Shown here piece after piece: positions 2,029 to 60,770 of a stretch of 64,000 nucleotides of DNA (positions are counted from its first letter, which is position 1; every line of letters starts with the position of its first letter). Source of the DNA: an uncultured Clostridium sp. (GTDB lineage: Bacteria > Bacillota > Clostridia > Clostridiales > Clostridiaceae). The stretch lies in the NCBI GenBank assembly GCA_934746785.1, contig CAKVFO010000001.1, positions 16,967-80,966 on the forward strand, given 5' to 3'. The notes below the pieces were generated by a model. That model was given only the letters and a program-made list of their open reading frames with translations, made no database searches and was not told the origin of the DNA. Made by a program: the position numbers and the translations under genes.

Positions 2029-4014
2029 ATGGTAAAAAAGGAAGAAAGTCGGAGAATAACAATAAAAAAGAAAATCTTATTTATTACTATGACATTGGTA
2101 GTATGTTCAATCTTTCTTTTATCGGCGGTATCAGTATATGGATTTATTAATAATGCTAAGACAAACTTTACTGAGAAGTCAGACGCAATTAATAATTATA
2201 TCAATGTATTGATAAACTCTAAATTTGATAGTATTGAAAGTACTATAAATAATTATGCATCAAATTTGAGTTTAAATAATTCCATTGAATTAAATAAGCA
2301 GCTAGAATCTATAAAAGAAAGTATAACAGAGGTTACAAGTGTGTATTATTGTAGTACAGATGATAAGAAAGTAGAGATATACCCATATTCAGATATATCA
2401 AATATAGATGTAACCAAAAGAGAGTGGTATATTAATGCAAAGGGAGCTAATGGTAAGTTCTGTATAACAGATGTATATTCTGATTCCTTGACAGGAGATT
2501 CTATCATAACATTTTCTAAAGCGATTATAGACAATGGAAAGTTGAAAGGAATATTAGCAGTAGATTATAATTTAAAACATTTAGCTTCAAGTATATCTAA
2601 GATAAGATTTGGAGAACAAGGATCTATTATTTTAGTAGATAAAAAAGGAACAATAATCACAGGTGAAGAGAAGAGTGCAAATATAGATAAGGGATTTATA
2701 GGTGAAGAATTATTTAATAAAGTTAATGAGGGTAATTCTGGAGAGATATCTTTAGGTGCAGATGAATATAAGGTGTCATATTACAATGTAGAAGGAATTG
2801 ATTGGAAAATTATATTAGAAATGTCTCATAGTGAGTTTAATTATGCAAGGAATAAATTTTTAATAGGTATGATTATCGTAGCAATTATGGCATTAATAGC
2901 ATCTATTATAGATTCACTATTATTTTCAAGCAAGATGACTAAAAAATTGAATGCAATTAATGAAGGTATATTTAGAAGTAGTAAAGGGGATTTTAGTCAG
3001 GAAGTTAATATTAAATCAAATGATGAACTAGATGAAATGGTTAAAAACTTTAATAGTATGCAAAAAAATATATCTAAGTTAATATCTGTGACAGATACTT
3101 CAGTAAAGAATGTAGATAAGTCATCTGTAACATTAGCTGATATGAGTGAGGAAGTATCAAAGGCTATGAGTAATGTTTCTACTACAATTACTGAGATATC
3201 AAAGGGAAGTATGGAATCTGCTCAGAGTTTAGAGACTTTATTAGCAGGTTTAGATAGTGTATCAAATCAAATTAATAATATTGATAATTTGAGTAATTCT
3301 ATAGAACATTTAGCTAGTGAAACTAGAGATTTAAGTAGTAATGGTTTAGGTTTAATTAATACTGTTATGGTTAAATCAAATGACACAAAGAGGAGCACTT
3401 TACAAGTAAGTGAAGTTGTTTTAAAGGTTAGAGAAAGTGTTGAAAATATAGCTATTTTAAATGAAACTATATCTAATATAACTGAACAAACAAATTTATT
3501 GGCTTTAAATGCTGCTATAGAAGCTGCTAGAGCAGGGGAATCTGGAAAGGGCTTTGCCGTTGTAGCAGAAGAAATAAGAGAACTTGCAGAACAGACATCA
3601 GTATCTGCAAAGAATATTGATGAGGTTATTAAAAATATTGTTAGTACTGTTAATGTTGCTGTTGATAATGTTGAAAAAACTAATGGAATTGTGGAAACTC
3701 AACAAGAAGTTGTTCAAGATGCTAAGGTTATTTTTGACAATATAAGTAATCAGATTAATATACTTACAGATAATTTGAAGGAGATAACTAATAACATAAG
3801 AATTGTTAATAAGAATAAGAATGATATTGTTAATGAGGCTGAAACTATTTCTTCAATTGTAGAAGAAACAGCAGCAGGTACTCAGGAAGTTAATGCAACT
3901 GCTGAGGAAGTTACAGCTTCTACAGAAGAGGTTGTAAGCCATGCTGATAGGCTTAAACAGTTAAGTGGTATTTTAAATAAAGAAATAGATAAGTTTAAAT
4001 TGAAAGAAGTTTAA
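2029..4014 (+). CDS. Methyl-accepting chemotaxis protein (N-terminal TM, Cache-like sensor, HAMP, MCP signalling domain)
   Basis: 661-aa ORF with the conserved signalling hairpin [38 protein letters not shown]. It has two TM segments around a ~250-aa periplasmic domain, and a HAMP-like segment after TM2. Confidence 0.9.
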
Positions 4015-4024
4015 TACTTTGCAA

Positions 4025-4060
4025 AAATCAGGTTGATTTAAATGAACCTGATTTTTTTTT
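4025..4060 (+). terminator. Rho-independent terminator of the chemoreceptor gene
   Basis: AAATCAGGTT (4025-4034) pairs with AACCTGATTT (4045-4054), followed by a T-run to 4060. Confidence 0.7.
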
Positions 4061-4215
4061 AATATATAGAAAGTTATTTTGTTTTTAGAATCTTTTAACA
4101 AAGCTAATTTGTTTTTGTATCTAATTAATAAAAAATTAATAAAGGAAAGGGCATTTTATGCTTTAATAAGTTTAGGCTATAATAATTTTATAAAACCTTA
4201 AGGGGGTAAATTAAT

Positions 4216-21357: not shown

Positions 21358-21497
21358 ATGAATGAATTAACAATGTAAATGTTAGAAGAAGTTAATGGTG
21401 GAGGAAAAAACTTGCTTGGGTAATGGGTGTTGGCGGAGGAATCTGTGGTGCTTGCGGTGGAGCAGGTGCTGGATTTACAGCAGGTGCAGCATATTAA
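21358..21497 (+). pseudogene. Double-glycine-leader, glycine-rich class II bacteriocin-like peptide gene, disrupted by an in-frame stop and a frameshift
   Basis: An AGGAGGA RBS at 21344-21350 precedes ATG 21358, which reads MNELTM, TAA, MLEEVNGG GK. The frame changes at the A6 run 21405-21410. The continuation (21411-21497) reads LAWVMGVGGGICGACGGAGAGFTAGAAY*. Confidence 0.6.
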
Positions 21498-21712
21498 TAT
21501 TAAAGAGATAATAGGAAATTAAAAACTTTTTTTGAGAATAAGAATCTAATTATTACTTGTTTTTAGGTATGTAAGATACCTAATGCATAAAAGGATAATT
21601 GTCGTGTTACAACTGGTGTTATTGGATTTAAGCTATGTTAGTTGATTAGAATATTAAAAAATAAAAAGAAGAACTTATACTAAGTTTTTTTAACGTATAG
21701 GAAATTATTTTA

Positions 21713-21787
21713 CTTTTAGAACCTTTTGACAGGCTGTGACAAAGTGGCTTCCTGCGCTGAAAAGCGTGGCGTCAGCCACTTTGTACT
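21713..21787 (+). repeat. Copy 1 of a ~75-nt GC-rich hairpin-forming intergenic element
   Basis: Near-identical to 36350-36422 and 60696-60770. Outer stem 21739-21749 pairs with 21774-21784, and the inner stem carries a GAAA loop. Confidence 0.85.
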
Positions 21788-29573: not shown

Positions 29574-31571
29574 TTATATATTAAATTTAGATATTGATTC
29601 TGATAAGTTTTTAGCAATCTCTTTATTATTGTTAGATATTTTTGATATAGAATTACCATTATCATTAATTGAAGAAATACTAGAAGATATAGTAGATGCC
29701 GAGTCTGCAACAGTTGACATTGATTTTGATAAGTTAGATATTGTGTTAGAAATATCAACTATAGATGATGCTGCAGAGTTAAACATATCGTTATAATTTA
29801 ATAATAATTCTTTTACAGACTTAGAATTTTCTTTATAGATAGCTGTATAGCTGCTTAAAGAGTCATATTCGCTAAGTATAATATCTTCAAAGATAGATGC
29901 AAGTTCTTTAGAAGATGAAGTTAATTCATTAACAGCAGAGAAAACTTCTGTTATGTTATTTTGTATAGAAGAAACAGTTTCAGATGATTGTTCTGCTAAT
30001 TTACGGACTTCATCTGCAACAACAGCAAAGCCTTTTCCGTTTTCACCAGCTCTAGCAGCTTCAATAGCAGCATTTAAAGCTAATAAGTTAGTTTGTTCAG
30101 CTATTTGCAATATTTCATTAGACATTAAAGAAATATTATCAATTACTTTAACTCTCTCTATAGAATTCTTTAATTTTTCATTGCATGAAGCATAAGTTTT
30201 CTTTAAGTATATTTTTGTATCTTCTGATTTATTTAGAAGTTCTGATGAACTATTCTCAATAGAATCTGCAAGACTTAATCCAGTTTGAATACTTTCTTTA
30301 GAAGTAATTATATTATCTTTTATATCTGTAGAAGTACTATCAAGTTCAATTAATGAAGTTGAAGATTCTTCAATAAGGGCAGATATATTTTCAAGAGAAT
30401 CAGAAGCAGAACTTAATTCATCAAACATACTTGAAATCATAGTATCCATTTTATTAGTACTGTCAGATAAGTCTGAACTTCCAGTATAAACAGATTTAAT
30501 AGTTGAATTTAAAACTGTAACTGAATCATTTAAAGAAGTAATAACTTGAGAAAATTCATCATTTCCAGAAGTATCTTCCTTATGTGTAAGGTTACATTCA
30601 GATAGTTCAAGTGAGAACTGTTTAATCTTATTAATTTCATTAGTAATCCATCTATTTATATAAAGACATATAATTACGCTAATTATTACAGAAACTATAG
30701 AAATAATAATTAATGTTTTAATTGTTCTATTTGTAGCTGAATAAACTTCACTCTCAGCCATTGATATACATAAAGTCCAGCTAGTATTTGGAATACTTGC
30801 ATATGAAGTGAAGTATTTTTTACCGTTTATAGAAAAAACTTCAACGTTAGTTTTTAGGTTATCATAAGAATTTACTAATGGTAAAAGAGAATTGTAATTC
30901 TTATTATCTTTATTAATTTGGTCACCATTATAAACTAGAGTCATATCTTTATGTGCAACAAAGTTACCATGCTTATTTATTATGTATGCAAAACCTGTGT
31001 TACCTAATTGTATATTTTGAATAGTATTGTTAACATTATGTAAGTCAATTACTCCACAGAGATTTCCTAAAAATTTATCTCCATCCATAATAGGAACAGT
31101 TAAAGTAATTATTGAAAGCTCATTGTCAGGAATAACAAAAGGCTCCGTTATAGTTTTTTTATTCCCAGTTATATCTTTATAAAATTGTTCAGAAGATTGA
31201 TCTTTTATTGTATTGTTTTCTGCATAATAAGATATTCCATTAGGATCCATGATGAACAGATGTTTAAATCCCCAATCACTAGCTGACTTTACAAGCGTAG
31301 GATATTGTAAGTTCCAATCCATAGATTGAATATTATCCATTTTAGATATAGTATATAATGCTGTAAACCTATTTTCTAATTCATTAGAAATTAATTCTGA
31401 TGAATCTACAACCTTGTTCAAAAGGTTTTCATTAGTTGTAGATAAGACGCCATCTTTTAAATATACAGCAGACATTGTTACAGAAATAATACTGCTTAGT
31501 ATTATTAATGTTGAAAATATTAATAAAATTTTTTTCCCTATCGTTTTCGACTTGAAAACTTTAATTTTCAT
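29574..31571 (-). CDS. Methyl-accepting chemotaxis protein (Cache-like sensor, HAMP, MCP signalling domain)
   Basis: The signalling hairpin [38 protein letters not shown] is present. Two TM segments flank a ~260-aa sensor domain. Confidence 0.9.
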
Positions 31572-35899: not shown

Positions 35900-36192
35900 T
35901 AAGCGAAAAGTGAATATTTCCTAGTATTTAAAAGCTACGATGGAGAAGGTTATTTAATGTTACAAAAGGTTCAGAGAGTCAGTGGTTGGTGTGAACTGAT
36001 GCTTTTAGTTAAATAGGTATCACTCCTGAGCTGAATCCAGAAAACTTTGCTTTGTAGCATTGTGAGTAAGCGATATCCGGTGAGCATCCGTTATATGTAA
36101 GGGTTTGTTGGAACCGATTATGTTATATTTAGGCGGAGTTTTATCCCACTTTTTATGATATATTTATCATTCATAAAGGTGGTTTTTTTTAT
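35900..36192 (+). promoter_or_regulatory. T-box leader (tRNA-sensing riboswitch) with an intrinsic terminator; the specifier reads as AUC (Ile)
   Basis: The stem I base has a GA/K-turn-like CGATGGAGAAGG. AGAGAG is at 35973-35978 and GGTGTGAA at 35988-35995. The specifier-loop context is GGT-ATC-A-CTCC at 36016-36026. A T-box-like GTTGGAACCG is at 36107-36116. The terminator hairpin is at 36146-36182, followed by T8. Confidence 0.75.
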
Positions 36193-36349
36193 TCTTAGAT
36201 GAATTATATTCATATAAAAGATATGTATAATGTGCTTGTTTATGCGTTCTAAGTATGTTTTATGCAAAGAATAAAAAATGAAATTATAGTGCCGCAAAAG
36301 AACCGAAAAGAAAAATAATTAAATGGTATTTTTATAAGGAATTATTTTT

Positions 36350-36422
36350 CTTTTAGAACCTTTTGCATGGCTGACAAAGCGGTTTCCTGCGCTGAAAAGC
36401 GTGGCGTCAGCCACTTTGTGCT
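36350..36422 (+). repeat. Copy 2 of the ~75-nt GC-rich hairpin element, inside the ilv/leu 5' UTR
   Basis: CTTTTAGAACCTTTTGCATGGCTGACAAAGCGGTTTCCTGCGCTGAAAAGCGTGGCGTCAGCCACTTTGTGCT. It has a 2-nt deletion and a few substitutions relative to copy 1. Confidence 0.85.
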
Positions 36423-36474
36423 ACTTTATTAAAAAATATATAATGTTCCGTTTCGTAAATAAGGAGGGGGAAAG

Positions 36475-51916: not shown

Positions 51917-52290
51917 AGCGCCAGGACTTAAGGTAAAATAGATAGTATGAGAAAATAAAAAAGGAAACTCAGCTTGAGAGCTGAGTAAGTTCGTATAACC
52001 AAATCATAGATTTGTAATGGGAAAAAGGAAACTCAGCTTGAGAGCTGAGTAAGTTCGTATAACCAAATCATAGATTTGTAATGGGAAAAAGGAAACTCAG
52101 CTTGAGAGCTGAGTAAGTTCACCTAAACCAAATCATAGATTTGGAGGTTCACTTAAGTTGACGAGGATGGGGAGTATCGAATTCTTCGGCGGGTGCCCCA
52201 CGGTATCGCACTACCGTAAATGACTGACAAAGCTATGAAGTGATTTGTAGTACAAATTCAGTCTGGTGTTAAAACCTTCATTAGGGCTTT
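51917..52290 (+). promoter_or_regulatory. glmS ribozyme (GlcN6P-dependent), with an unusually large insertion in the P1 region
   Basis: The cleavage-site strand A|GCGCCAGGACU is at 51917-51928. The core TAAGTTGACGAGGATGGGGAGTATCGAATTCTTCGGCGGGTGCCCCACGG is at ~52153-52202, followed by P3/P4-like sequence. It lies upstream of glmS. Confidence 0.85.
51958..52144 (+). repeat. 64-nt tandem repeat, 2 identical units plus a third diverged unit, inside the glmS ribozyme
   Basis: Units 51958-52021 and 52022-52085 are identical 64-mers. The third unit, from 52086, shares the first 35 nt and the CCAAATCATAGATTTG hairpin. Confidence 0.95.
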
Positions 52291-60610: not shown

Positions 60611-60695
60611 ATTTAGGAATGCACATTTTCAGAGATTGAAGGTTATTCAAAAATAGAAATAGGCATAAAAATATTACTTCTATTCTCCAATTTTG

Positions 60696-60770
60696 CTTTT
60701 AGAACCTTTTGACAGGATGTAACAAAGTGGCTTCCTGCGCTAAAAAGCGTGGCGTCAGTCACTTTGTACT
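60696..60770 (+). repeat. Copy 3 of the ~75-nt GC-rich hairpin element
   Basis: CTTTTAGAACCTTTTGACAGGATGTAACAAAGTGGCTTCCTGCGCTAAAAAGCGTGGCGTCAGTCACTTTGTACT. Confidence 0.85.

Follow-up and report, generated by a model that had tools for sequence, protein, structure and literature searches.

A GC-rich sequence of about 75 nucleotides (nt) that occurs three times in a 64,000-nt stretch of DNA from an uncultured Clostridium sp. (contig CAKVFO010000001.1; the whole stretch is called the window here) is very probably the right-end module of a larger mobile DNA element, 228–233 nt long, non-coding, non-autonomous and targeted to transcription terminators. Comparison of occupied and empty loci shows repeated, recent insertion of this element at the distal ends of the T tracts of terminators, in a single orientation and with neither inverted repeats nor target duplications. 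As an overall explanation we consider it likely that a non-autonomous mobile element, whose right end mimics the terminator that it targets, is moved by an enzyme acting in trans. Labels L001–L077 denote the loci and contigs compared here, and positions are window coordinates unless prefixed by such a label.

Extent and anatomy of the repeat

The initial annotation of the window, made from its sequence alone, had reported an unassigned structured unit of about 75 nt at 21713–21787, 36350–36422 and 60696–60770, on the + strand and intergenic each time, and all three copies are present as described. The leading 16-mer, CTTTTAGAACCTTTTG, occurs exactly three times in the window, always at these sites, a match count attained by none of 100 shuffles, and a repeat search of the window placed the three copies in one family. 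A covariance model of the kind that the annotation had proposed, run over the window with filters off, recovered the three copies at 91–97 bits; because the next match scored 17.6 bits, the window holds exactly three. The copies are indeed GC-rich (44–51%), in a background that is close to 30% (29.9% for the window) rather than well under it.

The proposed length, in contrast, was far too short. We scanned a core of the repeat, CCTGCGCTNAAAAGCGTGGCG, against 185,579 species genomes. Of the loci recovered, 34 belong to Clostridium sp. DSM 8431, a rumen isolate with a draft genome, and three to two metagenome-assembled genomes (MAGs); two obvious chance matches fell in GC-rich genomes. Lining up the flanks revealed a sharp right boundary (...CAGCCACTTTGTTC), beyond which all copies differ, with conservation extending far leftward from it, such that the 75 nt form the right end of an element of about 230 nt. 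Clostridium sp. DSM 8431 carries around 35 near-identical copies, largely the dozens that had been named in advance as a mark of a selfish repeat, and ten full copies from this genome share 80–98% pairwise identity (mean 91%). All three window copies are also present on gut-metagenome contigs of the window's own species. Contigs of DSM 8431 and of the window species often break inside the element, as expected of a multi-copy repeat.

From left to right the element comprises a left end, (A)TGCATAGGAAA..., starting ATGCATAGG; a hairpin H1 (TTGACTGGCTTTC...GGAAGTTGTCAA); a long AT-rich hairpin H2 with arms GCAAAAGAACCTAAAAGCAAAATAATT and AATTATTTTACTTTTAGAACCTTTTGC; a GC-rich hairpin H3; and a right end of the form ...GTGGC-GTCA-GCCAC-TTTGT(T/A/G)C, which reads ...GTGGCGTCAGCCACTTTGTTC or ...CACTTTGTTC. 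The consensus folds into these three hairpins with a z-score of −4.5, and the 75-nt unit corresponds to the 3′ arm of H2 together with H3, the best-conserved part of the element. The fold first proposed for this unit, with an 11-bp outer stem, an asymmetric internal loop, an inner stem and a GAAA loop, is also the RNAfold minimum-free-energy structure (z-scores of −3.8, −1.7 and −3.0 for copies 1, 2 and 3, numbered from left to right in the window), and the differences noted between copies are correct, namely a U.G pair and a C.A mismatch in copy 2 and a G.U pair and an AAAA loop in copy 3. Terminal inverted repeats are absent from the consensus, the left end (ATGCATAGGAAAG) being unrelated to the reverse complement of the right end (GAACAAAGTGGCTG). 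The consensus also contains no open reading frame (ORF), with stops in all six frames, which rules out a small ORF or type I toxin.

Several variants were found. Internal deletions that keep both ends are present in L001, L005, L008, L034 and L030, and left-shortened copies with an intact right end in L016 and in window copy 3. Four DSM 8431 copies (L008 5946–6215, L020 1–266, L029 and L039 1–56) lack the first ~8 nt of the element and share a left flank of ~370 nt containing a 57-nt tandem repeat. In four loci with this flank it gave no Rfam match, and it resembles the region upstream of a paralogous gene transcribed divergently.

The family is unannotated and limited to a small clade, consisting of the uncultured human-gut Clostridium, DSM 8431 and a few MAGs; the nearest named relatives of the window species show ~70% identity for one protein. 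No match was obtained in an exact-core scan of IMG/VR viral contigs, in exact-core scans of JGI metagenome contigs with two different cores, or by BLASTN of the consensus against PLSDB plasmids and INPHARED phages, and our literature searches found no description of this repeat family. At the level of sequence, there is thus no sign of a plasmid or phage origin or of an annotated relative.

Empty sites and terminator junctions

Insertion can be read directly from two sites at which relatives lack the element. One copy in DSM 8431 separates the terminator of the valS T-box leader (Rfam T-box, E = 3e-6) from the ribosome-binding site of valS. The same leader is present without the element in five relatives (L065–L069) whose ValS proteins are 92–96% identical. 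Their empty site reads CTCTTTTTTA-T-TGTAATAAATAA; in the occupied site, CTCTTTTTTA is followed by the insert (ATGCATAGG...CCACTTTGTTC) and then by TGTAATAAATAA. At the second site, upstream of ilvH, the sequence GGTGGTTTTTTTTAT followed by AC(A/T)TTATT... is read straight through in L076 and L077 (CimA 93% identical), L073 and L074 (90%) and L075 (84%), and 230 nt are inserted at that point in the window and in L071. The insert in the window, copy 2, follows the terminator hairpin of the ilv T-box leader (36146–36182), its T8 tract (36183–36190) and an A, and this terminator is kept in the relatives that have no insert.

Comparison of the empty and occupied sites, with junctions exact to 1–2 nt, revealed no target duplication at either ilvH or valS. 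The terminator hairpins and T tracts are intact at both occupied sites, and in both cases the insertion lies between A and T (after TTTTTTTTA and before TAC..., and after TTTTTTA and before T(T)GTAAT). A third terminator, that of ssb, is occupied in L067 and has no element after it in L065, where the downstream flank differs and the right junction is therefore blurred. The earlier statement that the repeat is not an obvious MITE (a miniature transposable element bounded by inverted repeats) therefore stands with respect to its anatomy, which lacks inverted repeats and duplications, but the empty sites show it to be an inserted mobile sequence all the same. Within the window species itself, metagenome contigs encoding the exact ilvH, MerR or SleB-like proteins showed no presence/absence polymorphism; the element is present on all such contigs that extend to the site, and several others stop within it or shortly before it. 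In L062, a symporter homologue of 77% identity has a different gene context, in which the element is absent.

Across the family, hairpins of −8 kcal/mol or stronger, themselves trailed by a T tract, precede 20 of 26 distinct left junctions. By the same measure, this holds for 4.9% of 1,375 T5+A sites from that DNA and, among the 469 intergenic sites, for 12% (enrichment at junctions, p = 1e-10 and 8e-14). Because control T5+A sites rarely follow hairpins, a T run by itself is not enough to explain the association. The junction typically reads ...stem-TTTTTTA followed by ATGCATAGG, with a tract that is usually T6–8 and then A. The target hairpins all differ from one another and are found just after stop codons or at the ends of T-box leaders, the latter in L010, in the window (copy 2) and, by eye, in L005; the empty sites confirm that they are host terminators.

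The element's own right end is also an acceptable target. Two copies lie directly behind the H3 hairpin of another copy, at L002:7399 (GCCACTTTGTTC followed by ATCTATAAG) and at L024:1422 (GCCACTTTGTC followed by ATGCATAGG), and their insertion after a GC-rich hairpin and TTTGTTC has given head-to-tail copies. By inspection, ~7 nt separate the junction from the G+C-rich portion of the preceding stem, in host targets and at the element's own end alike. The automatically measured spacer between hairpin and junction spreads over 1–8 nt, a value blurred by the A/T pairs that extend terminator stems.

Insertion is strictly oriented. The element always has the orientation of the terminator upstream of it, and not the random orientation that the initial annotation had associated with a selfish repeat. 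The top strand of the element is the G-rich strand of the locus in 40 of 41 copies, and almost all neighbouring genes lie on the same strand: in 23 of 26 cases the upstream ORF runs in the direction of the element, and the downstream ORF is co-oriented in 25 and convergent in 8. In Firmicutes, the G-rich strand is the leading-strand sequence, which is also the lagging-strand template.

Route of movement and rival explanations

Movement of the element could be accounted for by a trans-acting enzyme that recognises a DNA hairpin together with ~7 T-rich nt on one strand, probably in single-stranded DNA at the replication fork. Such an enzyme would cut at the right end of the element, freeing it, and at the target, opening it, and the right end would mimic the target because the same enzyme cuts both. 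The class that would fit best is that of the HUH enzymes (the Y1 transposases TnpA of IS200/IS605 and RAYT, rolling-circle transposases and relaxases), which read hairpins and cut a few bases away; a structure-specific tyrosine recombinase would be the alternative. We put forward a single-strand-DNA, hairpin-recognising mechanism of the HUH type only tentatively, as one that may well prove wrong. To the host the element would be largely a neutral passenger, and it would have to let transcription through, because it lies inside the leaders of essential operons.

A number of observations weigh against this explanation or narrow it. No mobilising gene was found in the 8-kb DSM 8431 loci, and no ORF-bearing relative of the element was found in the IMG/VR, PLSDB, INPHARED or JGI scans. 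The left hairpin H1 is unlike H3, in contrast to the two ends of IS200/IS605 elements. Six of the 26 left junctions have no clear hairpin, and the valS junction is exact only to 1–2 nt because the empty and occupied sites differ by one T. Because the usual coding strand and the leading-strand sequence are one and the same G-rich strand in these genomes, a replication bias and a transcription bias are inseparable here. The four copies that share a left flank may reflect a segmental duplication or a composite repeat rather than independent insertions. Finally, one or two positions of H2 covary (C–G, A–U, plus a C.A mismatch), which is weak support for the hairpin being kept, in DNA or RNA, and may point to some selection on its pairing.

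This covariation also bears on the possibility of a structured regulatory RNA (a small RNA, cis-acting leader or 3′ untranslated region element) that is multi-copy because several genes use it, as do the stable folds (z-scores down to −3.8), the position of copy 2 in the 5′ leader of the ilv operon and the location of many copies 20–120 nt upstream of a start codon. We nevertheless regard a regulatory RNA as very unlikely. Across 35 distinct sequences, none of the 19 pairs of H3 showed a compensatory change, the outcome that had been set down beforehand as counting against a structured element, and two outer-stem pairs were mismatched in most copies (24 of 35 and 28 of 35 sequences); the inner stem of H3 was fixed by the search pattern and is therefore uninformative on covariation either way. 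Judged by this alignment, the element is not a conserved RNA structure. The genes flanking and downstream of the copies are unrelated to each other, with no association to any gene family, and the same ilvH and valS leaders in close relatives do without the element. In addition, some 35 copies at ~91% identity in one genome are a signature of transposition.

Tests for known RNA and transcription signals gave no support to a regulatory role either. The Rfam scan suggested in the initial annotation (Rfam 15) yielded no family for the element at gathering or permissive thresholds: at permissive E-values, copy 1 and one full-length copy from DSM 8431 gave only chance hairpin matches with E >= 2e-4, far below gathering, and the sole gathering match in the window is glmS, which lies elsewhere from the copies. 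No sense sigma-70-like promoter was found in the DSM 8431 consensus or the window copies; one antisense match (10 of 12) in the consensus is not conserved in the window copies, and the promoter idea was rejected. The view that the hairpin is not an ordinary terminator is supported by the copies that sit between T-box leaders and the genes they control, ilvH or valS, a position that argues against efficient termination, and no T tract follows H3. It needs qualifying in that a lenient terminator scan weakly flags GTGGCGTCAGCCAC plus TTTGTACT, or more generally GTGGCGTCAGCCAC plus TTTGT(A/T/G)C; the favoured fold pairs UUUGU inside H3. On these sequence criteria, the element appears to be neither an efficient terminator nor a promoter.

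Among DNA-level alternatives, H3 could be an attC-like site or the element a cassette, with a structure-specific tyrosine recombinase, resembling an integron integrase or Xer, pairing folded H3 with terminator hairpins. Folded single-stranded hairpins are substrates for recombination by integron integrases, and terminators as well as attC sites are used by class C group II introns. A target defined by structure rather than sequence, the restriction to a single strand and orientation and the conservation of H3 would all fit such a site. By inspection, however, and with no dedicated attC model run, the R′ box GTTRRRY has no match in the right ends GTTCT(A/T), GTACT and GTGCT, and no matching R″ or L boxes are visible; moreover, there is no integrase gene or cassette array near any copy, and the copies are dispersed. 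We therefore consider an attC-like site unlikely.

A route through RNA would share its target with class C group II introns, which insert just downstream of intrinsic-terminator stem-loops in the sense orientation, recognise DNA structure plus a few bases and land where harm is small (PMC4424553). It could take the form of an intron-like insertion or of reverse transcription joined to the 3′ end of a terminated transcript, with a reverse transcriptase acting in trans. Like these introns, the element inserts after intrinsic terminators in the sense orientation; its junction lies at the end of the U tract, where intrinsic termination releases the RNA, and the two left-shortened copies with intact right ends could also be read in this way. 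Against this, the element has no ribozyme and no group II domains (no Intron_gpII or group-II-D1D4 match even at E <= 10), and at 230 nt it is far below the size of a group II ribozyme. It also has no reverse-transcriptase ORF in its consensus and no GUGYG...AY boundaries. The other short variants that we examined are internal deletions with both ends kept, and there is neither an A-rich tail nor a target duplication. The likeness to class C introns is one of behaviour only, not of membership, and an RNA route seems quite improbable.

The junction data contradict a classical MITE of a DDE transposase, or a derivative of the IS1182/IS1272 type that targets hairpins, even though the element is small, non-coding, multi-copy and intergenic. 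IS1272 (TnSha1; IS1182 family, staphylococci) does target DNA secondary structures, often terminators, with no sequence specificity and no duplication, but its ends are inverted repeats, it cuts within the stem with loss of part of the hairpin, and its insertions occur in both orientations (PMC4923244). The element, by contrast, has ends that share no inverted repeat, leaves the hairpin and T tract of its target intact and unduplicated, and inserts in a single orientation. We regard this origin as extremely improbable.

The likely explanation, a non-autonomous element moved in trans, can be placed more closely by comparison with known families. As in IS200/IS605 derivatives (PATEs) and REP/RAYT systems, there are no inverted repeats or target duplications, a subterminal hairpin lies a few nt from the cleavage point, and insertion is strand-specific and 3′ of a short motif, here a T tract and then A. 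HUH enzymes of the IS200/IS605 and RAYT type are described as favouring the lagging-strand template (PMC6006769). The near-exclusive presence of the element on the G-rich strand resembles this bias. Unlike in IS200/IS605, the left and right hairpins are unrelated, sharing neither sequence nor shape, and the target is a hairpin plus T tract instead of a fixed tetra- or pentanucleotide; H3, with its 46 nt, also exceeds the usual length of IS200/IS605 or REP hairpins. Neither a tnpA nor a RAYT gene was found for the element. An all-against-all BLAST of 39 loci, including the 8-kb DSM 8431 loci, identified no shared insertion sequence beside it; the only shared neighbouring sequence was the ~370-nt left flank of four copies.

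The HUH Y2 families IS91/ISCR and Helitron have asymmetric ends, a GC-rich hairpin that lies a few nt short of the 3′ terminus and neither inverted repeats nor duplications. The element resembles them in its asymmetric ends, in the hairpin near its 3′ end and in its A/T insertion at both resolved sites. Its ends do not consistently fit the Helitron 5′-TC...CTRR-3′ pattern or the IS91 GTTC/CTTG rule (the window copies end GTAC or GTGC), and no Rep/helicase gene was found; to our knowledge, terminator targeting has not been described for either IS91/ISCR or Helitron families. Pneumococcal BOX, ERIC and Bacillus cereus bcr repeats are likewise short, hairpin-rich, intergenic, multi-copy and modular, with variants that lack internal modules. 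The element resembles these in being a modular non-coding repeat with internal-module variants, and has no sequence similarity to them. Both bcr1 and RUP have target duplications; we know of no mobilising enzyme identified for BOX, and of no report that BOX, ERIC or bcr share a precise junction with terminator T tracts.

A small non-autonomous repeat is thus a known kind of element, and what is unusual is its precise, non-destructive and oriented targeting of terminators without a ribozyme. We found no DNA-element counterpart with such targeting described in the literature searched, and as far as we know oriented insertion at the distal end of a T tract is established only for class C group II introns. 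It is conceivable, although we think it rather doubtful, that the element is a non-autonomous member of an undescribed class of structure-guided transposons, with a right end (GC hairpin plus TTTGTTC) that mimics a terminator and a trans-acting enzyme that cuts single-stranded DNA at a hairpin plus ~7 T-rich nt, at this end as well as at intrinsic terminators in general. All terminators on the exposed strand would then offer safe places to land, and the family would be a DNA-only analogue of a strategy so far known from class C group II introns. Bacteria commonly carry small non-coding repeats, for many of which no route of movement or rule of site choice is known; this family offers clean empty-site evidence and a target defined by structure. 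If a protein enzyme is responsible, it would be a generic recogniser of DNA hairpins, of interest for mobile-DNA biology and possibly as a tool. For practical purposes, the element breaks short-read assemblies of these clostridia and can be mistaken for a regulatory RNA, and it should be masked or modelled in screens of this clade for non-coding RNAs. It also sits in the ilvH and valS T-box leaders, apparently without inactivating them.

The window copies and neighbouring features

The three copies in the window differ in completeness (Table 1). Copy 1, whose left end (ATAGGAAATTAAAAAC) begins at 21511 with the boundary accurate to ~3 nt, has an H2 5′ arm that is replaced or degenerate; nhmmer aligned profile positions 19–111 at 21511–21604 and 61–244 at 21620–21787. 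Its H3 includes the small hairpin GTGGC-GTCA-GCCAC (21766–21779), after which TTTGTAC runs to the end of the element. Its left junction has no terminator hairpin. Directly upstream, at 21359–21497, lies a short glycine-rich, bacteriocin-like frame with stops, which the initial annotation had called a decayed bacteriocin gene.

The boundaries of copy 2 are exact to 1 nt, 36193–36422 being an equivalent parse. Its H1 is strongly diverged and its H2 and H3 are intact (nhmmer match, 36272–36423). The ilv/leu operon T-box leader upstream scores 56.8 bits against an Rfam gathering score of 93 and is therefore missed by a default Rfam scan; its terminator (36146–36190) lies outside the covariance-model match.

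Copy 3 (nhmmer match, 60690–60770) represents a subfamily whose H2 loop carries additional sequence and of which L067:17658–17959 is a full example of 302 nt. The left flank of copy 3 (CATAAAAATATTACTTCTATTCTCC, from 60663) matches the interior of that example, with weaker similarity back to ~60628.

Table 1 Features of the element and its target in the window
Feature	Position	Strand	Description
Copy 1	~21508–21786	+	Full-length but decayed, ~280 nt; the 75 nt first described are its right end; aligned with full copies
H3 of copy 1	21739–21784	+	GC-rich hairpin with GAAA loop; RNAfold and terminator-like scan
ilv T-box leader	35928–36106		E = 1.1e-11
Target of copy 2	36146–36191	+	ilv T-box terminator hairpin, T8 tract, then A
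Copy 2	36192–36421	+	Complete 230-nt insertion between ilv T-box terminator and ilvH ribosome-binding site
Copy 3	~60628–60769	+	5′-truncated remnant; H1 and H2 5′ arm missing

Two further cases concern the surroundings of the element on individual contigs. L066 (17658–17850) and L067 (17658–17959) encode identical ValS and differ behind the ssb terminator, where L067 has the full 302-nt copy and L066 only a diverged left module, with an operon for an ABC transporter after it; at this site the breakpoint of a strain-level rearrangement is marked by the element. In L045 (1–476), a canonical full-length left part, with another gene and terminator upstream, is joined to the right part of the ilvH copy; either the assembly is chimeric across the repeat, or two copies have recombined. 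L045 shows that canonical full copies exist in the window species.

Some further features were noted in passing. In DSM 8431, locus L008 contains, beside a copy of the element, an unrelated skipping-rope RNA (79.7 bits) and purine riboswitch (78.7 bits) at 2669–2752 and 4011–4111, respectively. Window positions 3458–3593 and 29945–30106 share 77–82% nucleotide identity with parts of several DSM 8431 loci; each falls within an ORF of ~660 amino acids, the two ORFs being on opposite strands, and the likeness is probably that of a conserved protein domain of a paralogous family. Finally, three tandem units of 64 nt at 51958–52149, of which two share 100% identity, extend into the 5′ portion of the glmS ribozyme (52080–52274) and look like a recent partial tandem duplication of the 5′ region of the ribozyme.

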